From an uncultured Acidobacteriota bacterium (GTDB taxonomy: Bacteria; Acidobacteriota; JAQAZP01): a stretch of DNA of 64,000 nt. The notes under the pieces were generated by a model. That model did not search any database and was not told the origin of the DNA. It saw only the letters and a program-made list of their open reading frames with translations. This document shows positions 8,786 to 63,003 of this stretch, piece by piece. The position numbers were made by a program, and so were the translations under genes. The stretch is taken from contig CAWIIB010000001.1 of assembly GCA_963836075.1 (NCBI GenBank), positions 1,728,001 through 1,792,000 on the forward strand, in the 5' to 3' direction. Position 1 is the first letter of the stretch. Every line of letters begins with the position of its first letter.

Positions 8786-9152
8786 TCAGGGCGCGATGCC
8801 CACCACGGTGCAGCTGCCGCCGTCGGTATCGCCGGACGGCATGTAGGGCGGCTGGTTGTACGGCGCCGGGGTCACATCCTCCACCGTGAAGGTGAAGGTG
8901 TTGGCCCCCACCAGCGCGGTGAAGGCGGGCAGGTTCTGCTGCCAGCTGGTGCTGTAGGTCTCTCCCGGGCCGAGGTTGGTATACCCGGCACGCCAGTTGT
9001 TGTAGACCGAGCCCCCGGCCAGTTCCACGCCGATTTTACCGGCCATGCGGCGGGTGCCCTCGGCGGCCAGGTTCTCCATCTCCACGGCTCATCGTCACGG
9101 TGAACGGCAGCACGCCGAACTGGGGCAGGCAGCTCAGCGACGCGGCAACCGT
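8786..9152 (-). repeat. PYNQPP C-terminal domain copy 1
   Basis: TVAASLSCLPQFGVLPF...NWRAGYTN...DVTPAPYNQPPY...CTVVGIAP*. Confidence 0.85.
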
Positions 9153-10457
9153 CTGGTTGGAGGTCACCGTGATCACGTTGGTGAAGATGTCGGGGTTGCC
9201 GTTCTGGGTGGAGGGGTAGCAGGGATAGACGTAGTCACCGCCCACGCCCAGGCCCAGGTAATCGCCGAGGAACTGGCTCGAGCCGCCGGCGTAGTAGCTG
9301 TCAAAGGAGGCCGGGGTGAGGCGGTACTCGGTGAAGCTGGCGCCGCCGTCAACACTGAGGGCGTAGTAGGCGTCGAACATGCCGTGCTGCACGCCGTCGT
9401 TCTGCACCGTGTGGCGGGTGTCGAGGTAGAGCACGTGCAGCCGGCTCTCCTGGTCCACCTCGATCCAGGGCCACAGCTGGTCGCCGGCCGGGCTGGAGTC
9501 GCCGTTGATCACCTGCGGAGTGGTCCATGTCGATCCCTGGTCGGTGGATTTGGTCAGGTAGGCGTCGACGTTGCGGTTGCCGCCGTCCCAGCCGGTGGTG
9601 TCGAAGTAGGTGCAGTAGAGCGTGCCGTCATTGGGGTCCACCGCCAGGCCGTTCAGCGAGGGGACGCGGAAGGTGCCGGGGAACCGGGCCGAGTCGTAGA
9701 TGTCCCAGGGGTCCATCCGGGTGGCGATGGTGATCGCCGGGTCGAAGGAGACACCGCCGTTGAGGCTGCGCCGGAGCATCACCCCGTCGTAGTAGTCCCA
9801 GTAGGTCACGTAGAGCTCGCCGCCCGGGCCCACCTTGGGCAGGAAGCCGACACCGCTGCCCAGGGAGACCGGCGACGTCCAGCTGTCACCCATGTCGGTG
9901 GAATGCTGACAGCCGTAGTTGAAGGTGTGGTAGACCCGGGTGCTGTCCGGAATGCCGGGCACGATGCCCGCGGCCAGCCAGCCCTTGTCGATGCCGCCGT
10001 CGACGATGGTCATCACCGACGGCTGGAAGGTGGCGGCCCCGGGGTTCTTGCGGGCGACAAAGACGCCGCCGTTGCCGGTCCAGGACATGCCGCCGGCCCA
10101 GAGGGTGCCGGTGCGGTTGTCATAGCAGGTCATCGGGTCGCCCTCGGTGCTCCCCTCGTGGCCGGCCGGCGGGCGGAGCAGCATGTCGGTCCAGGTCTGC
10201 CCGTAGTCGTTGCTCACCGAGATCCCGGTGCGGTACTGCCCCATGCGGTAGTCGTTCCAGCCGCCCACCACCTCGTTGGGGTGCAGGTGCACCGAGGCCA
10301 TGGTGGTCTCGTTGGCCGTGGCCGTGCCGCCATCGTCGATGCGGACCTGCGGCCCCACGGTCACTTCCTGGGCCGCGGCCCCGAGGGAGAACAGGAGCAG
10401 GCCGCAGCAGGCGGCCAGCCCGAAGATTCCAAAACGTATCCCGTACTTCTGTATCAT
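8786..10457 (-). CDS. Secreted BNR/Asp-box (sialidase-like) propeller protein with PYNQPP C-terminal domain; frameshift at ~9087
   Basis: Signal peptide AAA-Q; Asp-boxes SNDYGQTW, STDMGDSW, STDQGSTW, SVDGGASF; FLGDYLGL. One extra base converts TMS-VEMENL into TMS-RGDGE. Confidence 0.8.
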
Positions 10458-10514
10458 GATGTACTCCTCAACCAGCTTGCCGGCGAAGCCCGAGGCCCGC
10501 CGCGGGCGGACAGA

Positions 10515-11249
10515 TCACTTCGCCGGTTCCGGCATCTTCTCCCGCAGCAGGGGCAGGAACTGGGCGGGCACCTTGTAGCCCAGGGCCTCGGCCCGGGCCA
10601 CGCCGTCCCAGGCGCTCTCGTAGTCCTCGAGGTAATAGTCGAGGACCGCCAGGCGGCCGTAGGCCTCCCCGTGGTCGGGGTCGAGGTCCAGCACCTGCAG
10701 CCAGGCCTGCTTCGACGCCTGGTAGTCGCCGGACATCTGCAGGGCCCAGGCCAGCTGCTTCCGCGCCTCGAAATGGCCGGGAGCGAATTCCAGCGCGGTG
10801 TTGAAGGAGGCGATGGCCTCGTCCCCCAACCCCTTGCGCAGCAGGGCCTGTCCCAGGCCGGTGAGGTGTTCCGGGCTCTCCGGGGCCATGATCACCGCCC
10901 TGGTCAGGGCACCGATGGCAGCAACGCGGTCATTCTTTTCAAAGAGGTAGAAAAGGCCCCGCTGGTAGGCATCACCGGCAGTGGCGAAGACCTCCGCATC
11001 GGGGAGCGGTTGGGCCGCCGCCGGGTCCACCACCACCCGGCCCGTGTCATAGGACAGGCCGCGCAGGGCATCGGCCATCCGCTTTTCCTTGTAGCTCTGA
11101 CCGGCGGACGGGGGAGACAGTTCGCCGGCCTCCACCGGGGCCGTCTCGTCGATCACGGCCGCCTGCTCCGACTGCTGTTCGCTGCTGCAGCCGCTGAGTC
11201 CAACGGCGCAGACCAGCAGCGCCAGGGCAAGAAATCTGAGGGTGATCAT
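10515..11249 (-). CDS. TPR-repeat lipoprotein
   Basis: Lipobox LSG-C; several TPR-like helical repeats (ALEFAPGHFEARKQLAWAL, VLDLDPDHGEAYGRLA). Confidence 0.75.
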   Translation of the reverse strand: MITLRFLALALLVCAVGLSGCSSEQQSEQAAVIDETAPVEAGELSPPSAGQSYKEKRMADALRGLSYDTGRVVVDPAAAQPLPDAEVFATAGDAYQRGLFYLFEKNDRVAAIGALTRAVIMAPESPEHLTGLGQALLRKGLGDEAIASFNTALEFAPGHFEARKQLAWALQMSGDYQASKQAWLQVLDLDPDHGEAYGRLAVLDYYLEDYESAWDGVARAEALGYKVPAQFLPLLREKMPEPAK

Positions 11250-11428
11250 TGCTGTCCTCCATTGCTGTCATCGGAACCGGGCCGGGGATTGCGAAGCGTG
11301 CGGCTTCCGGAAGTAACCCGATAGATCAAGTTCTGTGAGACATTGTATACCATGCCGCTCCATCGGCAGGCATGGGTTCCACCCCCGCCGGCCGGTCAGA
11401 AGACCTTCCGACGGGGGTGCGGGAGTGC

Positions 11429-11794
11429 TCAGGGAGCCACACCGGTCACGGTGCAGCCGGCGCTGTCGGTGTCGCCGGCCGCCGGATAGGGCGGCTGGTT
11501 GTATGGCGCCGCGGTCACGTCCGCGGCCAGCAGGGTGAAATCGTTGGCCCCCACCAGCGTGCCCAGCGCCGGGATGTTCTGGAGCCAGTTGGTGGTGAAG
11601 GTGTCCCCGCCGGCCACGTTGGTGTAGCCGGAACGCCAGTTGGCGAAATACTGGCCCGCGGCCACGGTGACGTGAAGCTTTGCGGCCAAGGTGCGGGTGA
11701 AGCCGGTGTAGAGGTTGGTCAGGCCCACGGTCATGTTGGTGGTGAAGGGCAGCGTCCCCGACGAGGGCACGCAGCTGAGCGAGGCGGACACCGT
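11429..11794 (-). repeat. PYNQPP C-terminal domain copy 2
   Basis: TVSASLSCVPSSGTLPF...NWRSGYTN...DVTAAPYNQPPY...CTVTGVAP*. Confidence 0.9.
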
Positions 11795-14491
11795 GTCCAC
11801 CGCGCCGCTGTCGCAGTCCAGTTCAAAGACGCTGAAGGCGTCGATCCCGGCTTCCACCACCGACCCGTCGTTGAGGTCGGAAGCCTCGAAGCGGACCTTC
11901 ACCGTGCTGGTGGGGGTGACGAAATCGGCCACGGTGAAGGTGTGGACGTTCCAGCCGCTGGGGCTCTGCGGGCCCACCGTTTCCACCAGGACCCAGCTGG
12001 CGCCGTCGTTGTTGGAAACATGGATGTTGAACAGGTCGTTGTTCGGGTCCCCGCCGACGTTGTTGGTGTACCACAGGGCGAAGCTTACCTGCGCCGCCGG
12101 CACAGCGGACAGGTCGAGGGTCGGCGAATGGAGCCAGGTGATCCCGCCGTCCACGTCGGTGTCGTCGTCGGCGTTCTGGGTCAGGTAGCAGTTGCCCGAC
12201 CCGTCGTAATCGATGGCCGGGTCGCCCCGGTCACCACCGCCCACCGGGATGCCCCGCTCCCAGGCGCCGGCGGTGAGACCGCTGCCGTCGATCACGGTCC
12301 AGCCCAGGTCGTCCTCGAAGTCGTCGCCGAAGGTTTCGGACAGCTGACCCACCTCGGAGGTGTAGTTGCCGCTGACCGGGTTGCGCACCAGGCCGGCGGT
12401 GACGCCCTCGGCGCTGAAGAAGTATTCAGGGCTTTCGTTGCAGTCGGCCGCCGGCAGGGTGGCCGTGTAGAGGTCGCCACTCAGGTGGGTCAGCGGGTAT
12501 TCGTCAAAGAACATGCCGCCCGACCGGTAGTGCAGCCTGGCCGACCCGGTGACGTAGCTGTCGGCGTTCTCCACGATCTGGACGTTGATCGTGGTGCTCA
12601 CCCCCGGATCGACATACTCCGGCGTGCCGTCGGGGAGGGTGATCTTGAGCAGCGCGGTCATGGCCAGATCGGGGTTGCCCCACAGGGCGCCCCACTCGAA
12701 GGCCTCGTACTTGATGTAGTTCCAGAGGCCGTTGAGATACATCTCGCGCAGTCCGGCCTGCAGCGCCTGCCCCTGGGTGTAGTCCCCGGAGGTGACGCGG
12801 GTGGTGAAGAAGTAGTCCAGCGACTGGCTCGATCCGTCGTAGGCGCTGTTCCAGCCCGGGCAGCCCATGGCCACCTTGGTGGCGCCCACAAATCCCACCG
12901 CCCCCTGCCGGATCATCGACTGGCCGATGTTCAGCGAGTCGGTGTCCGAATTGCTGCAGGCGTCGGCGAAGATGATCGCCGGGTAGTCGTCATCGAGGGA
13001 GGAGCAGTCCGAGGACTGGATGAAGGCCGGGGCGCCCAGGCCGGCGATGTGGGACGAGGTGGGCGACCCGTGGCCGGCCCAGTTGACAAAGGCGAAGCGC
13101 CCGGTGGGCCAGACCGCCATCACGTTGCTGTTCAGCAGCTCGTAGTCACAGGCGAAGCTGGAGTGGTAGTCCGCGTTCTGCTCGTACATCCGGGTCATGG
13201 TCCAGTCGGCCATCCAGGGCTGGTCCACCTTGGCTTCCATCAGCTCCGCGTTGTCGGTGTCGGCCCAGAAGTAGCCGCCGAGGAGCAGGATGTTCTGCTT
13301 GTAGGAGAGGTCGGTGTTCTGCTCGAAGGCCACCGACTTGTTGCAGATGTTCGTCACGTCGGTGGCCCCGCTCCAGGGGATGCGGCCCACGTTGATCTCG
13401 GCGTAGAAGTCGATGGGGTCGCTGTTCTCGCCCCACTGGTGGTCGCCGTCGGCGTCCCACGACTGGTTGTCGGGCAGCGAGAGCTCGGCGTAGTAGAAGT
13501 CGGTCTCCGGCTGGCCGTAGCCCACGTCCTGGGCGCAGCGCCGCATGGGCACGTCGTCGTAGTGGCCCACCAGCAGCAGGTCCTCGATGCCCCACTCCGC
13601 GGTGGGGTACTTGTCGATGAGGAAGTTGCGGATCCGCTCCGCCTGGTCGTAGCCGGTGTAGTTGGCGTCGATCCAGCTGGTGGTCACCACCTGCACGGTG
13701 CGGCCCTTGCTCACCTCGTGATTCACCAGCGGGGTCACCGCCGAGGTCAGGCTGTCCAGGGTGACGATGACGAAGTCGTAGAGCCCGCGGCCCTGGCGCT
13801 GTCCGGCCGGGTACCACTGCTGGGCCTGCGTGTAGTTGAGCACGATCTCCCGGGCAGTCTTTTCGGTGCCGGGCAGCCAGTCGCTCATCGGGGCCACCGA
13901 GCCCTGGTGCGGCATGGTGTAGTGGACGTTCACCGTGACCCGCGGGTGGTGGGTCAGGATCCCGCTGGCCGCGGCGTAGGTGAAGGGGGATACCCGCACG
14001 TCCACCAGGTTGTACTTGCGGTAACCGGCACGGCCCACCATTTCAGCCACCACGGCGGGCCAGGGCGCGTCGCTGCCGTAGGCCGCATGATGGTTCTGCT
14101 GGTAGCGCTCCAGGTCCCTGCGGTAGAGCTCGGGGTTCTCGTCGCCGATCACCCGCGGCAGCGGCGCCGGCGCCACGGCGTGGGAACCGGAAAGCACGGT
14201 GCTGCCCTGGCAGGTCCAGGTCACCCCGGTGGCTGTTGCGCCGGGGGGGATGGCCACGGCAAAGATCCGTGCCGGCATGTTCGGTTTTCCGGGAACCAGC
14301 AACCGCCCGAACCCCTCCACGGCAAGCTCTCCATCCTGATCAATGGTGTAGACGGAAGCGTCCACGGTCACCGACACCGTCCCGGTATCGGCGGCCCGGG
14401 CATCGAAGCCCGGAAGGAGAAAGAGGGCGGCAACGATCAGGCCGCAAAGGAGAACGGTTGATCGACGGCCGGCGGAAGGAGCGCAACACAT
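11429..14491 (-). CDS. Gingipain-like C25 cysteine peptidase (propeptide + catalytic domain + beta-rich domains) with PYNQPP C-terminal domain
   Basis: Propeptide PGKPNMP; LLLVG, TDFYYAEL, EINVGRIP; catalytic WAGHGS and DACSN; LWGNPDL. ATG 14491 is 7 nt from GGAGG. Confidence 0.85.
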   Translation of the reverse strand: MCCAPSAGRRSTVLLCGLIVAALFLLPGFDARAADTGTVSVTVDASVYTIDQDGELAVEGFGRLLVPGKPNMPARIFAVAIPPGATATGVTWTCQGSTVLSGSHAVAPAPLPRVIGDENPELYRRDLERYQQNHHAAYGSDAPWPAVVAEMVGRAGYRKYNLVDVRVSPFTYAAASGILTHHPRVTVNVHYTMPHQGSVAPMSDWLPGTEKTAREIVLNYTQAQQWYPAGQRQGRGLYDFVIVTLDSLTSAVTPLVNHEVSKGRTVQVVTTSWIDANYTGYDQAERIRNFLIDKYPTAEWGIEDLLLVGHYDDVPMRRCAQDVGYGQPETDFYYAELSLPDNQSWDADGDHQWGENSDPIDFYAEINVGRIPWSGATDVTNICNKSVAFEQNTDLSYKQNILLLGGYFWADTDNAELMEAKVDQPWMADWTMTRMYEQNADYHSSFACDYELLNSNVMAVWPTGRFAFVNWAGHGSPTSSHIAGLGAPAFIQSSDCSSLDDDYPAIIFADACSNSDTDSLNIGQSMIRQGAVGFVGATKVAMGCPGWNSAYDGSSQSLDYFFTTRVTSGDYTQGQALQAGLREMYLNGLWNYIKYEAFEWGALWGNPDLAMTALLKITLPDGTPEYVDPGVSTTINVQIVENADSYVTGSARLHYRSGGMFFDEYPLTHLSGDLYTATLPAADCNESPEYFFSAEGVTAGLVRNPVSGNYTSEVGQLSETFGDDFEDDLGWTVIDGSGLTAGAWERGIPVGGGDRGDPAIDYDGSGNCYLTQNADDDTDVDGGITWLHSPTLDLSAVPAAQVSFALWYTNNVGGDPNNDLFNIHVSNNDGASWVLVETVGPQSPSGWNVHTFTVADFVTPTSTVKVRFEASDLNDGSVVEAGIDAFSVFELDCDSGAVDTVSASLSCVPSSGTLPFTTNMTVGLTNLYTGFTRTLAAKLHVTVAAGQYFANWRSGYTNVAGGDTFTTNWLQNIPALGTLVGANDFTLLAADVTAAPYNQPPYPAAGDTDSAGCTVTGVAP

Positions 14492-14653
14492 GGGCATACC
14501 TCCATATAGGGATTAAAGTGCATTCGGCAACCCGGAATCCGCGGTGGCGAGTCCGCGACGTCGGAAGGCTGAACTGCGGCGGGACCCCGGTGGCCGGCGG
14601 TTGGACGGAGAGCCTGGCCGCCAATCGGGGGAACCCACTCATATGTAAGGAAT

Positions 14654-14682
14654 AATGTAATGCCGGGGGGCGGGAATGTCAA
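14654..14682 (-). promoter_or_regulatory. sigma70-like promoter of C25 peptidase gene
   Basis: Minus strand TTGACA-N17-TACATT in a locally AT-rich patch. Confidence 0.65.
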
Positions 14683-14776
14683 TGCGGATGACCGCTTATC
14701 CTACTGATTCCATATACTTTCCGCAGATCGAATGGATCAGCAGCAAATGGCAGGCATCCGGGTCAGGTCATGCGTC

Positions 14777-15454
14777 TCAGTCCTTGACCGGTTTGCCGGT
14801 CTTGTACATGGTCTGGAAGCCGTCCTCGGACACTTCGGCGGAGAACTTGCGCACCCACTTGACCAGCTTGTTCCAGGTGTTGGTCAGGGCGGTGCCGCTG
14901 GTCACCCGGGTGTGCAGTCCGGCCAGCAGTTCCCCGCTCTCCTTGTGAACGAACTTCAGCTCGATCCGGGCCAGGCCCTTGCCGGCCATGGCCGGCGCCA
15001 GGAACCGTGCCGCCTTGTTTCCCCGGGTGCAGTCGACGATCCGTCCGCTGACCAGCACGTCGCCATCCTCCAGCGATACGGCGGCCCGCCCCGCGAGATC
15101 GGCGCCCAGCTGCAGTTCCAGCATGGCGGGCATCTCGGCGCTGATCTGGCGGGCCAGTTCCAGGTCCTCCTCTTCGCGTCCGGCGGCAGCGGTGCCGATG
15201 AACTGCGGTGCGGGCCAGGCCTCGAAGTGGAAGGTGTGGTCGTCGACGGAAAACCCCGGTTTGACCCAGAGGTAGTCCACTGACGATGACTGGCGGAACT
15301 CCTTGCCGCCGCCGAACCACTCCGGATCGAGCGTCCCATCGTCCAGCACCGCCTGGCCGGCCGCAGCCGGCCCGCTGCACAGCAGGGCCAGAACCGTCAT
15401 CCAGAGGATTGCCGCCATCGGAAAGAGCTGTCCCGGACACCCGGTCATCACCAT
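14777..15454 (-). CDS. Secreted DUF4410-like protein
   Basis: Hydrophobic signal ending AAA-G; VSGRIVDCTRGNKAARFL...AGKGLARIELKFVHKESGELLA resembles DUF4410. Confidence 0.55.
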   Translation of the reverse strand: MVMTGCPGQLFPMAAILWMTVLALLCSGPAAAGQAVLDDGTLDPEWFGGGKEFRQSSSVDYLWVKPGFSVDDHTFHFEAWPAPQFIGTAAAGREEEDLELARQISAEMPAMLELQLGADLAGRAAVSLEDGDVLVSGRIVDCTRGNKAARFLAPAMAGKGLARIELKFVHKESGELLAGLHTRVTSGTALTNTWNKLVKWVRKFSAEVSEDGFQTMYKTGKPVKD

Positions 15455-15462
15455 CCTCCCTT

Positions 15463-19260: not shown

Positions 19261-22200
19261 ATGAAAACCAGACTCTTCTTCCTCATGGCCGGATTGCTCT
19301 GCGCCGCCACGGCGTATGGCGGATCCCTGCAGATCCACACCGCCCATGCCTCCGGGCAGGTTACCGCTCCGTCCCTCCCGCCGCTGTCGGTCAGCGCCGC
19401 GGCTTCGGGCGGGACCGTCTTCTCCGGCGATGACCTCCAGTGGCTGGGCCAGTCCGGGGAGCCCCGCATCCCCTGGCAGGTGGTGACCCTGCTGCTCCCT
19501 CCGGACGCGGACAGCTCGACGCTCACCGGCCGGTTGAGCGGAGCGTCGTATGGCGAGGTGGCGGGAACCTGGCGGGTGGACCCGCTTCCCCCGCCGGCCA
19601 CCCGGAACAGATCGGGAGAAACCGTGTATGACTGGCCGGCAGGGAAAAGGCTGGCGGACGGCCATGACCTCGATATTTACGGGTCGAACAGCCTGTGGCC
19701 CGCAGAGGGTGTTCGCCTCCTCGGCTGCGGCCGGCTGCACGGCTGGCTGCTCTGCGAGGCGGCCGTGCCCCTGGTGCGCTGGAACCCGGCCACCGGCCGC
19801 CTGGTGCGGCTGGAATCGGCGCACCTGCGCCTCGAGTTCGAACGCACCCCGGTGGGCAGCGCCCAGCCGGTTCATCACCTGCGTAACCCGCGGGGAGCGG
19901 AGCGGGTGGCCCGCCTGGCGGCCAACTTCGAGTCAGCAGCCACCGCGTACGGCAACGGCCGCTCCAGCGAACGGGCCAGCGGCTACACCATCGTCACCAC
20001 CAACGCCGTGGTCAACAGCTCCGCCGCCCTCGCCGGCTTCATGGCCCACAAGGCCTCCCTCGGCTTCACCGTGCGGCTGGTCACCGAGGACGACTTTGGC
20101 GGCGGTCAGGGCGACGGCGCAGCGGAAAACATCCGTGCCTGGCTCCAGGCCAACTACCTGGCCGACGAGACTCTGCACGTCCTGCTCATCGGCAACCCGC
20201 ACCCCGGCGAGGGCGAAGTGCCGATGAAACGCTGCTACGACAGCGTGGACGGGATGTACGAGATGCCCACCGACTTCTTCTACTCCGACCTCTCCGGCGA
20301 CTGGGACCTCAACCAGGACGGCAATTCCGGCCAGTGGGAGGACATGGGGGACGGCGGCATCGACCGTTTCTGGGAGGTGCTGGTGGGGCGGATCCCCTAC
20401 TACGGCCAGATCACCGACACCGATCACATTCTGCAGAAGCTCGTCGATTACGAACAGGATACCGACACCCAGTGGCGGCGCCGGGCCCTGCTGCCCATGG
20501 TGCCGCTGGACGACGCCACCCAGTCCTACCAGCTGGGCGAGCAGATGAAGGCCGGCTACCTCGAAGCGGCGGCCATCCCCTCGCACCGCCTCTACCACGA
20601 CGACTACGGGCTGGTTCCCCTGCCGGAGACCATCCCCTCCAGCTACGAGAACGTGATCAACCGCTGGAACGACGCCCCCTGCGGGCTGGTGGTCTGGATG
20701 ACCCACGGCTGGAACGAAGGCGGCGCCGAAGTGGCCACCAGCGACTCGATCCTCGGCCTTGACGACGCCTTCCCCGGCGCCACCTGGCACGGCTCGTGCG
20801 GCAACGCCGAACCGGAACACCCGCGCAACATCGCCTACGCCCTGCTGCGCCACGGCGGGATCGCCACCAACGGGGCCACCCGCTCCAGCTGGTACTACGT
20901 CGGTGAAACAAACTTCACCGCGTCCACCAGCATCGGCGGCCTCGGCTACCAGTACGCGGCAAAACTGGTCGCCGGACAGAGCTGCGGCCAGGCCTGGGCC
21001 GACGTGCGCCAGGAGATGGTCCCCGGCATCTGGTCCAATTTCGCGATGCACAACCTCTACGGCGACCCCTCGCTGGTGGTGATGCCTCCGCCGCCCGCCT
21101 TCACCGTCCGGCCCACCGACCTCTTCGCGGTCTCCGGGGTGCGCAACGAGGTGTGGCACGGCGGCCAGCGGACCTTCACGCTGAAGAACAATAGCGGGTC
21201 GCCCTTCAGCTGGTCGGCAACCGGCTCCACCCCGTGGCTCGCCCTGGACCCGGCAGGCGGCACCCTTGCCGGGGGCGAAGAGGTCGAGGTGCTGGCACAG
21301 ATCTCCTCCTCCTCCGGCGAGCTGCCGGTGGGGACCCAGCAGGCACAGATCATCTTCAGCGAGGCCGCCGGAGGCGTCACCATTCAGCGGGACGTACAGG
21401 TGGAAGTGAAGCCGCGGGTGATGGCCATCCACTGGAAACTGGACGAGCAAAACGGGTTCATCGCCTACGACGGGAGCGGTTTCGACAACCGCGGGTTCCT
21501 TGAAGGGGGGATACGCTTCCAGAACGACGCGGTTCCCGGACGCTTCGGCGGCGCGCTGCGCTTCCACGAGAGCGGCTACATGATCAACATGGAGCACCTG
21601 GGTCTCCAGGACATCCCGCCGCCCTGGACCATGGCCATGTGGGTCAAAAAGACGGAGAACATCACCGGGACCAGCTCCCTCTTCTCCTCACCCACCGCGG
21701 CGCTGCGCCTGGAGCACTGGAACAACGACGACGTGGGGTTCACCATCTTCGGCGGCGGGGGCGACCACAGCTTCGGCTACTCCGCCCCGGTGGGCCAGTG
21801 GGTCCACCTGGCACTGGTGGGCAGCGAATCGAGCACGTCGCTCTACGTCAACGGCCTGCCCTGGGCCACGGTGGACACGCCCATCGCCGCGCCGATGAGA
21901 TCGCTCTGCACCTCGCTGCTCAGGCTGGCCGCCGAGCTGGATGACGTGCGGGTCTACAACCACACGCTCTCCGCCGAGGGGATCAAGGCCCTGGAGCGTG
22001 GCGGCCAGGCCATGAACCCCGCACCGGCCGACGGCGCCGCCGGCATCGCCGACGGCTCGCTGCTCAGCTGGGTGCCGGGTGTTTCCGCCGTCTCCCACAA
22101 CGTCTACTTCGGCACCGACGCCGGGGCGGTGGCCGCGGCCACCGTCGATTCACCGGAGTATGCGGGAAACCAGAGCGGGACCGACTGGCAGCCGGCCCTC

Positions 22201-22674
22201 GTGCCGGGGGAGGTCTATTTCTGGCGGGTGGACGAGGTGACCTTCGGCGGCGGCAGCCTGGGGCCGGTGCGCGGGGACGTCTGGACCTTCAGCTCCACGG
22301 CGGTGGAGACGGTGAGCGTGCAGCTGGCCTGCGTGCCGTCATCGGGCACCCTGCCCTTCAGCAGCAGTTTCACCGCCACCCTGACCAACATCGCCGCCGG
22401 GGAGAACCGCCGGGTGGCCGCCCGGCTGGACGTCACCACCGCCGGCGGTCAGAGTTTCCCGGGCTGGCGGGCCGGCTGGAGCAACCTGGCGGACGGGGAG
22501 AGTTTTGTCGCCTCCTGGACCCAGCAGTTCCCGGCCCTGGGGTCACTGGTGGGCGTCAACAGCTTCCTGCTGCGGGCCGTGGACGTGACACCGCCGCCGT
22601 ACAACCAGCCGCCCTGGCTGCCGGCGAGTGACAGCGATACCGGCCAGTGCACGGTGACAGGGACCGCGCCCTGA
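19261..22674 (+). CDS. C25 cysteine peptidase + BACON-like + LamG-like domains with PYNQPP C-terminal domain
   Basis: GEPRIP propeptide; VLLIG, PTDFFYSDLSGDW, EVLVGRIP; catalytic WMTHGW and GSCGN; NLYGDPSL; LamG HWKLDE, WVHLALV, LYVNG, LDDVRVYN. Confidence 0.85.
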   Translation: MKTRLFFLMAGLLCAATAYGGSLQIHTAHASGQVTAPSLPPLSVSAAASGGTVFSGDDLQWLGQSGEPRIPWQVVTLLLPPDADSSTLTGRLSGASYGEVAGTWRVDPLPPPATRNRSGETVYDWPAGKRLADGHDLDIYGSNSLWPAEGVRLLGCGRLHGWLLCEAAVPLVRWNPATGRLVRLESAHLRLEFERTPVGSAQPVHHLRNPRGAERVARLAANFESAATAYGNGRSSERASGYTIVTTNAVVNSSAALAGFMAHKASLGFTVRLVTEDDFGGGQGDGAAENIRAWLQANYLADETLHVLLIGNPHPGEGEVPMKRCYDSVDGMYEMPTDFFYSDLSGDWDLNQDGNSGQWEDMGDGGIDRFWEVLVGRIPYYGQITDTDHILQKLVDYEQDTDTQWRRRALLPMVPLDDATQSYQLGEQMKAGYLEAAAIPSHRLYHDDYGLVPLPETIPSSYENVINRWNDAPCGLVVWMTHGWNEGGAEVATSDSILGLDDAFPGATWHGSCGNAEPEHPRNIAYALLRHGGIATNGATRSSWYYVGETNFTASTSIGGLGYQYAAKLVAGQSCGQAWADVRQEMVPGIWSNFAMHNLYGDPSLVVMPPPPAFTVRPTDLFAVSGVRNEVWHGGQRTFTLKNNSGSPFSWSATGSTPWLALDPAGGTLAGGEEVEVLAQISSSSGELPVGTQQAQIIFSEAAGGVTIQRDVQVEVKPRVMAIHWKLDEQNGFIAYDGSGFDNRGFLEGGIRFQNDAVPGRFGGALRFHESGYMINMEHLGLQDIPPPWTMAMWVKKTENITGTSSLFSSPTAALRLEHWNNDDVGFTIFGGGGDHSFGYSAPVGQWVHLALVGSESSTSLYVNGLPWATVDTPIAAPMRSLCTSLLRLAAELDDVRVYNHTLSAEGIKALERGGQAMNPAPADGAAGIADGSLLSWVPGVSAVSHNVYFGTDAGAVAAATVDSPEYAGNQSGTDWQPALVPGEVYFWRVDEVTFGGGSLGPVRGDVWTFSSTAVETVSVQLACVPSSGTLPFSSSFTATLTNIAAGENRRVAARLDVTTAGGQSFPGWRAGWSNLADGESFVASWTQQFPALGSLVGVNSFLLRAVDVTPPPYNQPPWLPASDSDTGQCTVTGTAP
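22309..22674 (+). repeat. PYNQPP C-terminal domain copy 3
   Basis: TVSVQLACVPSSGTLPF...GWRAGWSN...DVTPPPYNQPPW...CTVTGTAP*. Confidence 0.9.
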
Positions 22675-34981: not shown

Positions 34982-35060
34982 ACAAATCGGGCCATCAGCC
35001 CCACCAGGCATACGGAGGCACCAGGTGAAAACGCAACGGATCAGGAAGAGAGGCCGAGCG

Positions 35061-38000: not shown

Positions 38001-38518
38001 ACGATGCCCACTACGCCGTCGGTGATGAACCCGCCTGGGTGGCGAGCGGCGCTCTGGACGACAATGACTCGCCTGACCTGGCCGTGGCGAACAACGGTGA
38101 CGGGGATATCTCGGTGCTGCTCAACCTGAACATTTTCCCGCCACCATCAACCATCTCCGCGTCATTCACCTGCACCCCCTCCGCGGGCACGGTGCCCTTC
38201 AGCACCGCCATGTCGGCGCAGATGGCCAACCTTGAACCGACCCGACCGGCCACGCGGGTAGCCGCACGGATCGATGTCCAGCTGGCCAACGGCACCAGCT
38301 ACGGCAACTGGCGGCGGGGCTGGACCAATGTGAGTCAGGGCAGCCAGTACAACATAAACTGGGTTCAGCCGATCCCGGCGGTGGGCACGGTAATCGGAGA
38401 CAACATCTTCACGCTGACCGCGGAGGACATCACGCCCTCACCATACAACCAGCCGCCCTATCCCCCGGCCGGGGGTACGGCGACGGACGGTTGTATCGTG
38501 AGTGCCAGTGCGCCGTGA
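35061..38518 (+). CDS. Tandem paralog: 8-repeat propeller + FN3 + VCBS/FG-GAP repeats + PYNQPP C-terminal domain; frameshifts at ~36663 and ~37819
   Basis: ORFs 34971..36668, 36739..37839 and 37931..38518 join after removing one G in CTGGGAT and one in TCAGGTA, restoring alignment with 32525 (LYL-DEY; DTVS-VLPGLGDG). Seven DLxxDxxxDL repeats. Confidence 0.8.
38150..38518 (+). repeat. PYNQPP C-terminal domain copy 5
   Basis: TISASFTCTPSAGTVPF...NWRRGWTN...DITPSPYNQPPY...CIVSASAP*. Confidence 0.9.
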
Positions 38519-45846: not shown

Positions 45847-46212
45847 TCAGGGAGCCATACCGGTAACGGTGCACTCACTCGTGTCCAGAGCTCCCGAGGC
45901 GGGATAGGGCGGCTGGTTGTAGGGCGACGGCGTGACATCCGCGGCATACAGGGTGAACAGGTTGTCTCCCAGCACTCCCGCCACGGCGGGAATGTTCTGG
46001 TTCCAGGCGACGACCATACTGGAACCGGGAGCCACATTGGCGTACCCGGCTTTCCAGATACTGTAGTTGGTGCCACTCGCCAGGCGGACGTCGATGCGGC
46101 CGGCCAGCCGGCGCAGCTGCCCGGCATAGAGGTTCTGCAGGGTCACCGTCATGGTGGTGACGAAGGGGATGGTGCCCCAGGCCGGCTGGCAGGTCAGGCC
46201 GGCCCGCAGCGT
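45847..46212 (-). repeat. PYNQPP C-terminal domain copy 6
   Basis: TLRAGLTCQPAWGTIPF...IWKAGYAN...DVTPSPYNQPPY...CTVTGMAP*. Confidence 0.9.
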
Positions 46213-47511
46213 GAGGAAATCCCCCGGATCGTAGTGGTATCCCAGATCCGCCGTGCCCTGGTCGGAGACCTGGTCGGTGCGCGTGGTGAACTGTCCGAGG
46301 CAGACGGTTCCGCTGCCTGCGGCGAAACAGACATCGTTCGCCGGGAGGTTCCCGCCATTGACGCAGGGGCTGTCCACCGGTTGCCCGGCGGCGGTCTGGC
46401 TCAGATACCAGTCCCCCCGGGGCCCGGCAATGAACAGCGGATCGGCATCCATGTTTCCCATGCCGTACCACAGGCCCTCGATGTCGGTGTAGGTGATGGA
46501 GGGAGGATCGCCGGAGACCACCCGCACCTGCTCCAGCGTGTTGCCCCAGATAATCGAGCGGAGGATGGCGGCGTCCGCCTCCTCGCAGGCCACACCCCCA
46601 CCGTTGATGTCTGCACTATTGGCCACCACGGTGCAGTTGGATATCACCGCCGAAGCCGCGCTGCAATACGCGCCGCCGCCCTGCTGGTCGGCACTGTTGC
46701 CCGCCAGCAGGCAGTTGGTCATCGTCGCCGGCGACGTGTCGAAAAAGATACCGCCGCCATGGCCGGCACTGTTCGATACAATCTCGCAGTTGGTGATGGT
46801 TGCCGGGCTCCAGCAGTAGATGCCGCCGCCGGACAGGGCCGTGTTCCCCGAAACCAGATTGCCGGTGATTGTCGGGTGAACGCCGACTCCGGCACAGGTC
46901 ACGCCGCCGCCGTACCGTCCCGCCGAGTTCGAGGTGATGCTGTTTCCGGCGATCAGCGGGGTCGAACCGGTATAGACGAAGATCCCGCCGCCGTTGTTGC
47001 TCCCCGAGGCCGTGTTCAGGGTGATGACGTTGCCGGTGATCAGCGGTGAGGCCCGCAGGCAGTAGATGCCGCCGCCGGTGGTAGCGGAATTCTGCGAGAT
47101 CAGGTTACCGTCAATGGTGGGGGCTGAATCGGCGCAGTAGATGGCGCCGCCGTAGCTGGCGGTGCCGTGCTGAATGGTAAACCCCCGGGCCACCGAAGCA
47201 GCGCCTTCACCACTCTGGAACAGGAACCCCCGGCCAACCCACTGGCAGTCGATGATGCAGGCGGCCGGCCCGTTCTCCGACTGGACGGTGATCGCCTTGC
47301 CGCCGTAGTCGAGGTTGCGGTTTCCCGGCCCGCTGTAAGAGCCGTCGGCCACCAGCACGGTGTCCCCGCTGGCGGCGGCGTCGATGCCGGCCTGGATGTC
47401 CGGCTGATCGCCGGGGACATGGACCGTTGCCGCGGGCAAAAGCCCCGGGACGGCGGCGGCCAGCAGGGCGGCGGCCAGCAGGAAGTTCAGCGGGTTCATC
47501 GATGCGCTCAT
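45847..47511 (-). CDS. Secreted right-handed beta-helix (Pmp-like GGGI repeat) protein with PYNQPP C-terminal domain
   Basis: VPGDQPDIQAGIDAA..GDTVLVADG start; NxAxxGGGIYC repeats; TTRTD..ADLGYHY segment. Confidence 0.85.
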   Translation of the reverse strand: MSASMNPLNFLLAAALLAAAVPGLLPAATVHVPGDQPDIQAGIDAAASGDTVLVADGSYSGPGNRNLDYGGKAITVQSENGPAACIIDCQWVGRGFLFQSGEGAASVARGFTIQHGTASYGGAIYCADSAPTIDGNLISQNSATTGGGIYCLRASPLITGNVITLNTASGSNNGGGIFVYTGSTPLIAGNSITSNSAGRYGGGVTCAGVGVHPTITGNLVSGNTALSGGGIYCWSPATITNCEIVSNSAGHGGGIFFDTSPATMTNCLLAGNSADQQGGGAYCSAASAVISNCTVVANSADINGGGVACEEADAAILRSIIWGNTLEQVRVVSGDPPSITYTDIEGLWYGMGNMDADPLFIAGPRGDWYLSQTAAGQPVDSPCVNGGNLPANDVCFAAGSGTVCLGQFTTRTDQVSDQGTADLGYHYDPGDFLTLRAGLTCQPAWGTIPFVTTMTVTLQNLYAGQLRRLAGRIDVRLASGTNYSIWKAGYANVAPGSSMVVAWNQNIPAVAGVLGDNLFTLYAADVTPSPYNQPPYPASGALDTSECTVTGMAP

Positions 47512-47554
47512 CGGTCTCTCTCGTTTCCCGGCGGGCCGGTCCCGCGGCCGCCGG

Positions 47555-47920
47555 TCAGGGCGCCACACCGAGCACGATACAGCCGGCGGTGCCGGAACTG
47601 CCGGACGGTGCGAACGGCGGCTGGTTGTAGGGCGGCGGCGTCACGTCCACCCCGGTCAGGGTAAAGCGGTTGAGGCCCACCACACTGCTCAGTGCCGGGA
47701 TGGTCTGGTTCCACGATACATCCCGGCTCTCGCCGGGCCCCAGGTTGAGCCAGCCGGCTTTCCAGTTGTTGTAGTTCTGGCCGGCGGCCACCGCCGCATC
47801 CAGGCGGCCGGCCAGCCGCCGCGGGCCATCGACCAGCGTGCTGGCCAGCGTGACCCTGAAATTGACGGAAAAGGGAACCGTGCCCGAGGCGGGGGTGGCG
47901 GTCAGCCCCACAGCCACCGT
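47555..47920 (-). repeat. PYNQPP C-terminal domain copy 7 (first Cys replaced by Ala)
   Basis: TVAVGLTATPASGTVPF...NWKAGWLN...DVTPPPYNQPPF...CIVLGVAP*. Confidence 0.9.
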
Positions 47921-49420
47921 GTCCACCGCACCACGTGCGTAGTGATAGCCGATGTCCGCCTGACCCTCGTCGCCAACCCAGTCGGTCCGGGTGGTCAGTT
48001 CGTCGAGACAGACCGTCACCATGTTGGGGGGTGGTGACTGGAACGCGATGGGGAAACAGATCGAGGCCGCCGGCACACTGCCGGCGTCGAGGCACGGGCT
48101 GTCCGCGCCGTGCCCGGTGACCACCCGGCCCAGGTAGTAGTCGCCCAGCGGCCCGGTGACGAAGAGCGGGTCGCCGTCGATCATCCCGGCCCCCCAGTTC
48201 AGGGTGCAGCCGTATTCGGCAAACACGCCGGCCAGGCCGCCCTGCACCAGCGAGTGGCTGATGTCCAGAGTCGAAGGATGGCTGCTCTCACCGATATGGA
48301 TCTCGCTGCCCAGGGGCGATGTATTGCCGGAGAGGATGGTGTCCACCACGGTGGCTGCCGACTCATAGCTGCAGGAGAGACCGCCGCCCCCGACAACCGC
48401 CGAATTGCCGGAAATCGTGTTCCCGCGAAGCAGCGGGTCGGAAAAAGCGCCGCTGCAGACGCCGCCGCCGATCCCATGGCTGTGGTTGCCGCAGATCAGG
48501 TTATTGCTGATTTCAGCGGGTGCACCGCCAAACAGAAAGATCCCACCGCCTTCTTCGTTGGCGGTGTTGCCGCTGATCACGTTGTGGGTGAACACCACCG
48601 TGTCGATATTGCTCAGTTCGACGCCGCCGCCCGTGTCGTGGGCCGTGTTTCCGGATATCTCGCAATGGGAAATGGTTGGCACCCCGAACGCACAGTACAG
48701 CCCTCCACCATGGTTTCCGCCGCTGTCCCCGTCTGCGTCGTTGGCGGAGATCAGACAGTTGGTGACCGCCGTCTCCGAGGAGTAGAGATAGAGCCCGCCT
48801 CCGCTGTTGCCGGTGTGTTCACCGGATACCGTGTTGCCGGTGACCGTACAGCCGTCGATGTCCGAAGCGTCGTAACGGCAGTAAATGCCGCCGCCCAGCG
48901 CCGCAGCGCCAAAGGTGGATGATTGGACCGAGTTGCCGGAGATGGTACAACGGGAGATCAGGGCATTTGAGGTGTCGAGAAAGATGCCGCCGCCCCGCCA
49001 GCTGGAACTGTTCTGGGTGACCAGGCAGTCGACGATGGTGGGGGACGAGTCGACGATGTGCAGGCCGCCGCCGCCCTCTCCCCCGTCGTCGCCATTGCGA
49101 ATGGTGAACCCCCGGACCACCGAATCCCGGCCTTCACCGCTGGTGATGGTGAACCCGGGTGAAAGCCCCTCGCAGTCGATGATGCAGTTTTCCGGGCCGT
49201 TGAGGGAGCGCACGGTGATCGCCTTGCCCAGCAGGTCGAGGTCGATGTTGCCGTAGAAGGTATAGGTGCCGTCGGCCACCATCACGGTATCCCCGGCAAC
49301 CGCCACATCGATGGCCGACTGGATGTAGGGATAGTCCCCGGGGACATGAATGACCGAGGCACCCCCGGCTGTGGGGATCAAGAGGAGAACCAGGATCGCG
49401 GCCATTGTGTATCGGTGCAT
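47555..49420 (-). CDS. Secreted right-handed beta-helix protein with PYNQPP C-terminal domain
   Basis: Paralog of both neighbours with the same architecture; GGGAG RBS before ATG 49420. Confidence 0.85.
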   Translation of the reverse strand: MHRYTMAAILVLLLIPTAGGASVIHVPGDYPYIQSAIDVAVAGDTVMVADGTYTFYGNIDLDLLGKAITVRSLNGPENCIIDCEGLSPGFTITSGEGRDSVVRGFTIRNGDDGGEGGGGLHIVDSSPTIVDCLVTQNSSSWRGGGIFLDTSNALISRCTISGNSVQSSTFGAAALGGGIYCRYDASDIDGCTVTGNTVSGEHTGNSGGGLYLYSSETAVTNCLISANDADGDSGGNHGGGLYCAFGVPTISHCEISGNTAHDTGGGVELSNIDTVVFTHNVISGNTANEEGGGIFLFGGAPAEISNNLICGNHSHGIGGGVCSGAFSDPLLRGNTISGNSAVVGGGGLSCSYESAATVVDTILSGNTSPLGSEIHIGESSHPSTLDISHSLVQGGLAGVFAEYGCTLNWGAGMIDGDPLFVTGPLGDYYLGRVVTGHGADSPCLDAGSVPAASICFPIAFQSPPPNMVTVCLDELTTRTDWVGDEGQADIGYHYARGAVDTVAVGLTATPASGTVPFSVNFRVTLASTLVDGPRRLAGRLDAAVAAGQNYNNWKAGWLNLGPGESRDVSWNQTIPALSSVVGLNRFTLTGVDVTPPPYNQPPFAPSGSSGTAGCIVLGVAP

Positions 49421-49455
49421 GTTCTGACTCCCCGTCGCTGCCTTTCCGGTTCCGC

Positions 49456-49821
49456 TCACGGGATGATCCCCGTCACTTCGCAGCTGTCCGTGTCCTGACC
49501 GCCAGAGGGCCAGTACGGCGGCTGGTTGTAAGGTGTGGGCGTCACGTCCTCGACGAGGAAGTGGAACCGGTCACTGCCCTCCAGCGCACCCAGCGCCGGC
49601 AGGGCCTGGTTCCAGGACACCACCAGCCCGTCCAGCGGGAGCACGTTGGCATACCCGGTCCGCCAGCCGCTGACCGTGGAACCGTCACCCAGCTCGATGT
49701 CGATGCGGCCGGCCACACGCCTCAGCTGATCGGCGTAGAGGTTGCTCAGTGTCACGGTCATCGTCGTGGCAAAAGGCAACAGGCCCAGACTCGGCTGGCA
49801 GATGATCGTCGCGCCCACGGT
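49456..49821 (-). repeat. PYNQPP C-terminal domain copy 8
   Basis: TVGATIICQPSLGLLPF...GWRTGYAN...DVTPTPYNQPPY...CEVTGIIP*. Confidence 0.9.
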
Positions 49822-51255
49822 GCTGCAGTCGGAGGGCCGGTAGTGATAGCCGATGTCCGCGATCCCCTGGTCGCCCAGGTGATCGGTACGGGTGGACAGC
49901 TGGTTCAACCAGGCGGTTCCGTTTCCCGTGGCGATGGCGGTACCGGCGGCCTGGCCCTCACCGCTGTCGAGGCAGGGGCTGTCCGCCGGCTGGCCGGCAA
50001 CCGTCTGCCCCAGGTAATATCCGCCCAGCGGGCCCGGGGTGAACAACGGATCGCCATCGATCATGCCGTCGCCCCAGTGAAGCGTTGCGCCAGATACGAC
50101 CCAGACTCCTGACTGGCCCCCCTGCACATCGGAGTAGCGGATGGTCACCGTGGTGTCGGCGCCCACCGAAATCTCATCGCCGTAGAAACTCTGGTTGCTC
50201 CAGAGGATACAGTTGACCAGGGTGGCCGAGGTGTTGTCGCTGGTGGAGTAGAGACCGCCGCCATGTTCGACGGACGTATTGCCGAAGATCGTGGAACTGC
50301 GGATCAGCGCAGCGGAACGGGCGACATAGATCCCGCCGCCGTAATTGGCGCTGTTTCCCGAGATCTCGCAGTTGGCCAGGTCGGGATCGGAGGACCAGGA
50401 GAAGCAGCAGCCGCCCCCGAAGGACGAGGCTGCGTTGTCGCGGATGCGGTTGTTGTGGATCACCGCTGCCGAGTCGTCACAGTAGATGCCGCCGCCGTGG
50501 CTCGCTGTATTCCCCCGGATCAGGTTGTCGGTTATCGTGGGGGCCCCACTGTCACAGTTGATACCACCCCCTTCGTAGGTGGCTGAATTGTTCTCGATGG
50601 TGTTGTCGGTGATGACGGCGAACGAGTTGACACAGCCGACCCCGCCGGAGTTGTTGGTAATGGTGTTGTTTCGAACCAGTGGATGACTGTTGTTACTGCA
50701 GGAAATTCCGCGGCCGCCCGTATTCCCGTCCACCAGGTTGCCTTCGATGATCGGGCTGCTGGTCCAGCCGCAGTAAACGCCGCTGTCGCCGTTGTTCAGG
50801 ATCGAGTTGTTCCGGATCACCGCACCACCGTGACAGATGATGCCGCCGCCGCTGTTGTCCATGATGATGCAGTTCCTGATGGTTGGACTGGAATTCGATG
50901 AGCTGTAAACCACGTGGTAGGGGGATCCGTGGATCAGTGTCAGTCCGTCGATGACGGAGTCTTCACCCTCCCCGTGGCCGAACAGAAAGGCCCGCCCGTC
51001 ATTCTCACAATCGACGATGCAGAAATCCGGCCCGCTCTCGGAGGCCACCGTGATCGCCTTGCCCTGGAAGTAGTTGTTCCTGTTGCCGTCCCCGGTGTAG
51101 ATGCCGTCGGCCAGCAGCACGGTGTCACCGGCCGACGCCGCGTCGATGGCCGCTCCGATGGTGGGCTGGTCACCGGGCACATGGATCACCGCAGCCGGGA
51201 GGGAAACGGACAGAAACAGGAATAGAATCGTGATGACGACACGGCTGATGGTCAT
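49456..51255 (-). CDS. Secreted right-handed beta-helix protein with PYNQPP C-terminal domain
   Basis: First gene of the 3-gene tandem; AGGAGAG RBS before ATG 51255; signal LPA-A. Confidence 0.85.
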   Translation of the reverse strand: MTISRVVITILFLFLSVSLPAAVIHVPGDQPTIGAAIDAASAGDTVLLADGIYTGDGNRNNYFQGKAITVASESGPDFCIVDCENDGRAFLFGHGEGEDSVIDGLTLIHGSPYHVVYSSSNSSPTIRNCIIMDNSGGGIICHGGAVIRNNSILNNGDSGVYCGWTSSPIIEGNLVDGNTGGRGISCSNNSHPLVRNNTITNNSGGVGCVNSFAVITDNTIENNSATYEGGGINCDSGAPTITDNLIRGNTASHGGGIYCDDSAAVIHNNRIRDNAASSFGGGCCFSWSSDPDLANCEISGNSANYGGGIYVARSAALIRSSTIFGNTSVEHGGGLYSTSDNTSATLVNCILWSNQSFYGDEISVGADTTVTIRYSDVQGGQSGVWVVSGATLHWGDGMIDGDPLFTPGPLGGYYLGQTVAGQPADSPCLDSGEGQAAGTAIATGNGTAWLNQLSTRTDHLGDQGIADIGYHYRPSDCSTVGATIICQPSLGLLPFATTMTVTLSNLYADQLRRVAGRIDIELGDGSTVSGWRTGYANVLPLDGLVVSWNQALPALGALEGSDRFHFLVEDVTPTPYNQPPYWPSGGQDTDSCEVTGIIP

Positions 51256-51365
51256 TCGACCTCTCCTGATCCGGTGAGACTGCTGATGGGCGTGATCAGC
51301 GTTTCGCGCGCACACGAGAGCGGCATCCGTTGCCGGATGGCGTTCACTCGCCTGCTGATGTAGTC

Positions 51366-55861: not shown

Positions 55862-55865
55862 GGAG

Positions 55866-55910: not shown

Positions 55911-55931
55911 TCAAGATCCAGAGGGACGAAT

Positions 55932-61850: not shown

Positions 61851-61985
61851 ATCCCGCTCCCCTTTCCACTGCTGACAGGCCGGCCGTTCCGGCCGGCCAG
61901 GGAAAAAACTGGCACAAATTCGACCCGGATAGCGTAGAGTATTGAGGATACCAATTTCAAACGGGTTTTCCGGAGGAGGGACAGG

Positions 61986-62558
61986 ATGGAGCAGCTGGTG
62001 GGGATCTGTATCGGCATCGGCCTCAGCGCGGCCAGTGGTTTCAGGCTTTTCGTGCCTTTTCTCGCCCTGGGCATCGCCAACCGGATGGGCTTCATACCGC
62101 TGGGAGAAAGTTTTCAGTGGATGGGCAGCCTGCCGGCGATCACCGCCTTTTCCGTAGCCCTGCTGCTGGAAGTGGGAGCCTACTACATCCCCTGGCTGGA
62201 CAACCTGCTGGATACCATTGCCACCCCTGCAGCGGTGGTGGCCGGGACCCTGCTCACCTACTCCCTGGTGGGAGACATTTCGCCGTTCTTCAAGTGGTCC
62301 ATGGCCCTGGTCGCCGGCGGCGGCGTGGCCGGCACGGTGCAGACCGGCAGCGTGGCCGCCCGGGGCACCTCCTCGGCGTCCACCGGGGGTGTGGGCAATC
62401 CGGTGCTCTCCACCGTCGAACTGGGCGGCTCGGTCTTCCTCTCCATCCTCTCGCTGCTCGTCCCGCTGGTGGCCATGATCCTGGCCCTGGTCCTCTGCTT
62501 CTTCCTCCTGCGCACCTCGCTGCGCTTCTTCCGCCGCCGGCGGGCCACCATCGCCTGA
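61986..62558 (+). CDS. DUF4126-family membrane protein
   Basis: GIGLSAASGFRLFVP, YYIPWLDNLLDTIA, TGGVGNPVLSTVE. Confidence 0.85.
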   Translation: MEQLVGICIGIGLSAASGFRLFVPFLALGIANRMGFIPLGESFQWMGSLPAITAFSVALLLEVGAYYIPWLDNLLDTIATPAAVVAGTLLTYSLVGDISPFFKWSMALVAGGGVAGTVQTGSVAARGTSSASTGGVGNPVLSTVELGGSVFLSILSLLVPLVAMILALVLCFFLLRTSLRFFRRRRATIA

Positions 62559-62583
62559 GTTTCGCCGGACGATCCCCGTACAG

Positions 62584-62610
62584 AAAAAGGGCCCGGGAAA
62601 ACCCGGGCCC
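62584..62610 (-). terminator. Rho-independent terminator
   Basis: Minus strand GGGCCCGGG-TTTT-CCCGGGCCC-TTTTT, 30 nt after the stop at 62641. Confidence 0.8.
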
Positions 62611-62640
62611 AGGAATGCTCGCTTCAGGTGATGCCCCGTC

Positions 62641-63003
62641 CTACTTCATCGAGCCAACCACCGTGCAGGCATCGCTGTCGGTGTCGCCGGAGGGAGCGAA
62701 GGGCGGCTGGTTGTAGGGAGCGGGTGTCACGTCAACACCGATCAGGGTGAAGACGTTGCTGCCCACCAGGGAAGCCAGGCCAGGCAGGCTCTGGTTCCAC
62801 ACGTTGCTGTATGTCTCGCCGGCGCTGAGATTGGTCCAGCCGGCACGCCAGTTGGTATAGGGGGTGCCGTTGCCGATCACCATGTCGATCCGGCCGGCGG
62901 CCCGGCGGTTCTCACTGGTCAGGTTGGCCAGCGACACCGCCATCTGGGTGGCAAAGGGCAGCACGCCACTGTCCGGGGTGCAACCGATGGTCACCTGCAC
63001 CGT
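62641..63003 (-). repeat. PYNQPP C-terminal domain copy 9
   Basis: TVQVTIGCTPDSGVLPF...NWRAGWTN...DVTPAPYNQPPF...CTVVGSMK*. Confidence 0.9.

Follow-up and report, generated by a model that had tools for sequence, protein, structure and literature searches.

Why do nine genes in a single stretch of an uncultured Acidobacteriota genome end in the same domain? The stretch, called the window here, is 64,000 nucleotides long (G000:C1:1728001-1792000); it belongs to assembly G000, which comprises 6.23 Mb in 10 contigs and is 94.7% complete. Window positions count from the first letter of the stretch, and the nine genes are lettered A to I. We found that each genome encodes some 175-220 exported proteins that have little else in common but end in this domain, an independently folding immunoglobulin (Ig)-like beta-sandwich of about 121 residues. 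On balance, and with moderate confidence, we regard it as a lineage-specific sorting or docking tag, which works like the C-terminal domain (CTD) of the type IX secretion system (T9SS) or like a dockerin and belongs to neither family. This function is suggested by the anatomy and the distribution of the domain.

The copies are located at 8786..9152 (gene A, minus strand), 11429..11794 (B, minus), 22309..22674 (C, plus), 34613..34981 (D, plus), 38150..38518 (E, plus), 45847..46212 (F, minus), 47555..47920 (G, minus), 49456..49821 (H, minus) and 62641..63003 (I, minus, ending ...SMK*). When translated, all nine stretches give the same domain of about 121 amino acids with a PYNQPP motif. Eight of them run in a single frame through to the stop codon, and the copy of gene A has a frame shift inside the domain caused by one extra base at about 9086-9089. 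In an alignment of the eight intact copies, identity to the first copy was 42-56% and 23 columns were invariant, including P-Y-N-Q-P-P. The first Cys is present in seven of these eight, gene G having the sole copy without it, and the last Cys in all eight; the frameshifted ninth has both, so that the totals are 8/9 and 9/9. An earlier reading of the window, the sequence-only reading, had claimed one shared C-terminal domain on nine genes with just these Cys counts, and our recount gave the same figures.

A hidden Markov model (HMM) of the eight window copies was run on all stop-to-stop open reading frames (ORFs) of G000. The domain was carried by 223 ORFs with 230 matches, 184 of which were near end-to-end on the model. 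The end of the match was the last residue before the stop in 197 of the 230. One ORF had a genuine second, internal copy (60.5 bits); six other apparent doubles were noise. In a greedy gene model of the genome, 175 of 4,867 genes (3.6%) have the domain. Metagenome copies behave in the same way, 78 of the 80 kept ending within two residues of the stop.

Conservation over 168 full G000 copies was highest at P16 and D92 (1.00), followed by G56, P75, T94 and G107 (0.99), by P10, R34, G82, P97, N99 and P102 (0.98) and by N27 (0.97); W53 reached 0.92, W70 0.90 and a final Pro 0.86. The PYNQPP motif, which the sequence-only reading had called invariant, is invariant in the eight aligned window copies but near-invariant genome-wide (P 0.98, Y 0.76 with F 0.18, N 0.98, Q 0.90, P 0.96, P 0.98). 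Cys8 and Cys114 were both present in 120 copies and both absent from 21, and one stood alone in 27; because the copies are kin, the p-value of a Fisher test on these counts is overstated. The co-occurrence fits the predicted disulfide between the first and the last strand, as had been proposed. The domain opens with Thr in 99% of 135 copies, preceded by a few small or Pro residues, and no linker or cleavage motif upstream of it was conserved in these copies. It ends ...C-T-V-T-G-x-A-P* with a mean net charge of -3.1 and has no hydrophobic stretch and no basic tail, in line with the earlier statement that it lacks a transmembrane helix and a basic tail.

The domain is confined to one class-level lineage of three species in the Acidobacteriota. 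Out of 41 genomes sampled from the phylum, the three that belong to the genus of the window were the only ones to match, and the other 38, from 31 other families, did not. The class in GTDB consists of those three genomes only, with 150, at least 139 and at least 114 matches among the 150 candidates scored in each. In a wider set of 401 genomes from 227 genera, in which 11 candidates were scored per genome, 3/401 matched. A degenerate DVTPxPYNQ pattern applied to 185,579 species genomes found 105 stretches, 102 of which were confirmed, and all 76 loci kept came from two records of metagenome-assembled genomes. A profile search of 1.84 billion representative proteins gave 497 matches at E<=0.001, 352 of them at E<=1e-30, and among 241 million metagenome records there were 346 pattern matches, of which 282 were confirmed; they came from a handful of projects. 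Contigs of runs from salt marsh, marine sediment and freshwater sediment (four studies) contain near-identical DNA; runs with small shares are no guide to habitat. In the RNA run X20, the share of sampled words was only 0.06. Many C-terminal copies per genome, on signal-peptide proteins and in a narrow clade, had been expected, and this is the pattern seen (175 gene models, three genomes).

The domain is an uncatalogued family, named by none of the Pfam, NCBIfam and PDB sequence searches. The eight window copies had no credible match in Pfam or NCBIfam at E<=10. With 28 diverse members, the sole Pfam match was a weak one to NPCBM_assoc (E 0.13) in one of the 28, and a profile search of all PDB sequences gave no match. 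These library searches had been proposed by the sequence-only reading, and the expectation that no named family would appear was borne out. No description of the domain was found in the literature collection searched; papers beyond that collection may exist. When a divergent Cys-rich variant was used as the query, only its own orthologues were recovered. Curators can use it as a clean seed from which to build a model of the family.

The copy of gene F was modeled with AlphaFold2 from a 28-row alignment, with very high confidence (pLDDT 97.3, pTM 0.87). The model is an eight-strand beta-sandwich, the fold that had been foreseen, and the PYNQPP stretch is within a 16-residue loop joining the last two strands. 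Foldseek matched the model in the PDB to generic Ig/Fn3-like domains with TM-scores of 0.4-0.69 and a best E of 8e-4. The neighbors include GH3 glucosidases, a dextranase, arrestins, MSP domains, adhesin repeats, the Vibrio matrix protein RbmA and complement C4; no T9SS CTD was among the matches listed. The E-set, CARDB and PKD Ig-like domains share the beta-sandwich with the tag but are usually internal and repeated. We take the opening P-x-x-G-x-x-P-F of the tag to resemble the starts of PKD or CARDB domains. The PKD models PF00801 and PF18911 had no match on the window copies or the 28 members. The ESM Atlas gave weak leads, the fourth being a cluster with 22% CARDB-bearing members (score 0.88). 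Kinship with CARDB (PF07705) was rejected: there was no HMM match on the copies, CARDB was found 0 times in G000 while 7 control genomes matched, and hhalign to a CARDB-bearing protein gave a probability of 0.1.

The passengers of the domain in the window are of unrelated types, as the sequence-only reading had stated and a Pfam scan now indicates. Gene A (8786..10457, minus) has a signal-peptide-like N-terminus and a BNR-like passenger. Gene B (11429..14497, minus; 1022 aa) has Peptidase_C25 (128 bits), and gene C (19261..22674, plus; 1137 aa) is composed of Peptidase_C25, BACON_2, Laminin_G_3 and the domain. Gene D (32525..34981, plus; 818 aa) has a repeat passenger without a Pfam family. 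Its paralogue, gene E (34971..38518, plus), combines D-type repeats with FG-GAP repeats and is split over three ORFs by frame changes at about 36660 and 37830, with the domain last. The tandem paralogues F (45847..47568), G (47555..49459) and H (49456..51315), all on the minus strand, have beta-helix/NosD passengers. Gene I (62641..64000, minus) is the 3' part of a longer gene with a frame change at about 63485-63519. An ORF upstream has BACON_2 and a C25-like match lies just past the window end; the passenger is probably Peptidase_C25. Signal peptides had been claimed for eight genes, and genes A to H indeed start with a readable basic and then hydrophobic, signal-peptide-like stretch.

Across G000, signal-peptide-like N-termini were found in 121 of 151 tagged genes vs 644 of 1,816 other genes, both of at least 400 aa, as called by a crude hydropathy rule and not by SignalP. 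The closest tag sits on a non-homologous passenger in 103 of 142 cases, and the median tag identity is 50% for related and unrelated passengers alike. Because the nearest tags cross passenger types and identity is uniform, the tag appears to be one module under a common constraint.

From the two sister genomes, 76 tagged ORFs, each cut 2 kb upstream, were also scanned with Pfam. Peptidase families occurred in 16 of them (6 C25, 4 S8 and 3 M14, plus M28, M23 and trypsin-like), beta-helix types in 8, FG-GAP in 9 and arylsulfotransferase in 4, and 25 were without a family. The remainder included CotH, PA14/LamG, purple acid phosphatase, BNR/sortilin, NHL, LVIVD, a PQQ propeller and a few others. 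No Pfam family fell on the tag itself in any of the 76. In the source records, tagged proteins are named 'hypothetical protein' or after their passengers.

The variety of passengers bears on two further explanations. The tag might be a C-terminal pro-domain, an intramolecular chaperone or inhibitor that is removed after export, as its terminal position and its presence on many peptidases would allow. It is, however, present on non-enzymes too, its divergence is uniform whatever the passenger and no conserved cleavage motif precedes it, which makes this explanation very improbable. Alternatively, it might act like a carbohydrate-binding module (CBM) and bring hydrolases to a polymer in the environment. 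Many passengers are hydrolases and the fold class is common to accessory domains of GH3 glucosidases and dextranase, yet most passengers are peptidases and non-enzymatic repeat proteins, and a glycoside-hydrolase family was found in only one of the 76 sister ORFs. Since no CBM or CARDB model matches and one substrate for about 4% of all genes is unlikely, we consider CBM-like targeting improbable, if a little less so than a pro-domain.

A second recurrent C-terminal tail was observed in the same genome. It is composed of two FG-GAP-like repeats ending ...GVNVAAGRF* and is found on 136 G000 ORFs of at least 250 aa. Its carriers in the window are at 2008-4102 (plus) and about 14500-17816 (minus). 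The N-terminal parts of these two genes are paralogous to the tagged genes D and A, and thus the same passenger types occur with either tail.

In its anatomy, the tag resembles the T9SS CTDs, which include type A (Por_Secre_tail), type B and FlgD_ig-like domains. Both are C-terminal beta-sandwiches, a predicted one in the case of the tag, on signal-peptide proteins with many copies per genome and conserved last residues, and the cargo is alike in kind, including C25 and S8 peptidases, beta-helix and FG-GAP proteins. However, the tag has no sequence match to the T9SS CTD and has 121 residues, eight strands, its own PYNQPP loop and a Cys pair. The T9SS type A tail models (PF18962/TIGR04183) gave no match on the eight copies (E<=10), on the 28 members or in the whole of G000. 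The models of SprA, PorV, GldM, GldL, GldN and PorP/SprF also had no match in G000, in a search that had no positive control genome and in which GldK was not searched. None of the 14 control genomes was T9SS-bearing, and only the PF18962 search had a positive, one over the cut-off in G019; this is the one genome among the 41 sampled from the phylum in which PF18962 was found. T9SS core genes were not detectable in the host with the models searched, and this host belongs to the Acidobacteriota. The sequence-only reading had set the window beside the T9SS cargo of the Fibrobacteres-Chlorobi-Bacteroidetes (FCB) group; with an acidobacterial host, seven T9SS models unmatched in G000 and the type A tail in 1/41 genomes, that frame has to be given up, and the domain is not filed under T9SS.

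One gene of G000 nevertheless recalls the T9SS, a PorU-like C25 peptidase at G000:C1:1027244-1029985 (NF033707 201.9 bits against a cut-off of 420; Peptidase_C25 243 bits). It was considered as a 'sortase' for the tag and rejected: its G001 orthologue has 65% identity, the same query found none in the sister genome G002, and 17 further genomes of the phylum, all without the tag, have distant homologues. A very divergent T9SS CTD read by a divergent T9SS could draw on this peptidase, on the beta-sandwich fold and on the shared position and passenger kinds. Against it stand the unmatched models in a 94.7%-complete genome, of which only PF18962 had a positive control, the lack of a detected PorU-like gene in G002 and the rarity of PF18962 in the phylum. 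We regard this as the least probable of the explanations weighed here and hardly credible. The peptidase itself is untagged; in a row with it on the minus strand (G000:C1:1027244-1032735) are a kinase-like gene related to HprK and a radical SAM/SPASM gene with a PqqD domain. This row looks like a peptide-maturation cassette.

The tag also resembles a dockerin. Such a module usually occurs once, at the C-terminus of secreted enzymes of various kinds, and docks them to a cell-surface partner. According to precomputed Pfam lists, homologues of the beta-helix passenger in other phyla carry a dockerin at the place of the tag. Unlike the tag, a dockerin is a small calcium-binding helical repeat; the model of the tag is all-beta, and the dockerin family PF00404 had no Pfam match on the copies or the 28 members. 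The short three-part tails LPXTG, PEP-CTERM, GlyGly-CTERM and MYXO-CTERM (Haft and co-workers) resemble the tag in being lineage-restricted and in occurring on dozens to hundreds of exported proteins of unrelated kinds. However, each of them consists of a motif, a transmembrane helix and a cluster of basic residues, and membrane sortases process them, whereas the tag is a soluble fold without these parts. Among other sorting tails sought in G000, there were one PEP-CTERM-like ORF, 0 LPXTG-like ORFs (by pattern) and 0 of T9SS type A. No other tail of this kind is abundant in G000.

We favor a sorting or docking function because the tag is terminal, almost always single and present on hundreds of unrelated exported proteins of one lineage. 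Such a tag could act as follows. The passenger would enter the periplasm via Sec, as the signal-peptide-like N-termini called by the hydropathy rule suggest. The tag would then fold in the periplasm and may be locked by the disulfide between its first and last strands, to which the Cys pairing points. A lineage-specific partner in the envelope would recognize one conserved surface of the tag, presumably formed by the long PYNQPP[YF]PPxGD loop, by conserved residues (Trp, Arg and Asn) and by the free C-terminal ...AP. This putative partner would take the protein to the cell surface or hold it there. A more specific version is that the domain is the cargo tag of an undescribed outer-membrane export or surface-attachment system, which evolved independently of the T9SS, serves about 4% of the proteome and reads the folded, disulfide-locked tag and its ...AP end in the periplasm. 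We put this version forward tentatively, as a possibility that falls well short of being probable.

A sorting or docking role of the tag would require a reader in these bacteria, and this reader would be a route of protein export or surface display that differs from those known. In addition, the tag makes the exoproteome of the lineage easy to recognize; about 200 proteins carry it, and C25, S8 and M14 peptidases are plentiful among them. Acidobacteriota are abundant in soils and sediments, and the tag is useful for judging what this lineage contributes to the breakdown of proteins and polymers in salt-marsh and marine sediments.

Several points weigh against a sorting or docking role. Among the best 150 matches in the 1.84 billion representative proteins, eight proteins carry the domain twice, in tandem in seven of them and with one copy terminal in every case, and three copies are internal, being followed by 195-330 further residues and lacking the ...AP ending. 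The sequence-only reading had described the domain as always single and terminal, which is true of the window but has exceptions elsewhere, in a small minority of proteins. A pure terminal signal would not usually be expected in tandem or inside a protein, and such copies are also compatible with a binding module. The main rival is a pure binding module, a lectin-like or adhesive Ig domain that sticks its passenger to the cell's own polysaccharide or lipopolysaccharide, to a biofilm matrix or to particles and takes no part in crossing the outer membrane or in sorting to it. The tandem doubles favor it, as do the many conserved Trp, Tyr, Asn, Gln and Arg positions, the structural neighbors among Ig/Fn3-like domains of glycosidases, adhesins and RbmA (TM-score up to 0.69) and the one weak NPCBM_assoc match. 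Binding modules, however, are usually found at either end and in varying number, whereas the tag is terminal (at most 3 residues from the protein end) in 146 and single in 142 of the best 150. Moreover, the last residue is Pro in 86% of G000 copies, and several first copies of tandem pairs are without the ...AP ending. We therefore judge a pure binding module to be unlikely, although it is clearly more plausible than CBM-like targeting or a pro-domain.

Other points against the sorting or docking reading concern size, export and the reader. T9SS CTDs are about 70-100 residues long, and a tag of 121 residues is larger than known sorting tails. The support for export comes from the crude hydropathy rule for signal peptides. 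In G002, one of the three tag-bearing genomes, no PorU-like C25 peptidase was detected, and a cohesin-bearing secretin, described below, occurs widely in genomes that lack the tag. None of the searches made turned up partner machinery.

These searches were directed at gene neighborhoods and at envelope proteins. Enrichment analysis around 175 tagged genes found only passenger-like fragments and pairs of extracytoplasmic function (ECF) sigma and anti-sigma factors. Among outer-membrane candidates in G000, 13 were picked by a C-terminal beta-signal rule and 12 were scanned, giving TonB-dependent receptors, FadL, porins, DUF6029 and DUF1207, and three without a family. A search for a scaffold protein with many repeats gave many ordinary repeat proteins and no clear candidate. 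G000 has two full secretins, one of which is in an operon like those of type II secretion systems or type IV pili, with T2SSE, T2SSF, PilM and PilN. This one, of lipoprotein type (G000:C1:2169991-2172495, minus), ends in a long acidic linker and then a cohesin-like domain (PF00963, 33.5 bits). This secretin was considered as a receptor for the tag and rejected: the cohesin-like domain is found in 24 of the 41 genomes of the phylum and thus does not track the tag. A complex prediction of the cohesin-like domain with the tag scored 0.00 and gave no support, and a literature search on secretins with a cohesin domain in type II secretion found nothing. A small secretin-like ORF in the window (5037-5858) was also discarded; it encodes a 273-aa protein beside an ECF sigma pair and is not a secretin gene.

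The ECF sigma factors with zinc-finger anti-sigma factors occur at G000:C1:1206060-1207456 and three more places. Three of the four sigma copies and three of the five anti-sigma copies adjoin tagged genes. These recurrent pairs hint at ECF control of some of the tagged exoproteins. The pair in the window, at 4063-5036, is similar.

The frame shift in the gene A copy was compared with other public data over the region 8700-10500. Contigs of four other public runs are all one base shorter at this site (at 9086 in three, 9089 in one). Without the extra base, gene A becomes a single ORF of 556 aa, and its last 121 residues match the full domain model with 173.9 bits. As four assemblies are without the base, the break in gene A is a sequence error or a strain-specific change. 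Frame changes interrupt several long genes of the window, namely 8786-10457, 34971-38518, 62641-64000 and 2008-4102, and the genome record probably carries many indel errors. At window 8822-8882, which encodes DVTPxPYNQPP, the depth of contigs is 20 to 80 times higher, and many loose ends flank the stretch on either side. This rise implies that the motif is conserved at the DNA level among paralogues, whose contigs are drawn in.

The window also contains other genes. An untagged GH38 alpha-mannosidase of 1,311 aa with Fn3_assoc and PA14 is encoded at 57915-61850 (minus). An ordinary resistance-nodulation-division (RND) efflux operon, composed of OEP, an HlyD_D23 membrane-fusion protein and an AcrB family protein, is located at 25211-30927 (plus), and two DUF6599 proteins are encoded at 133-1062 and 55812-56762 (plus).

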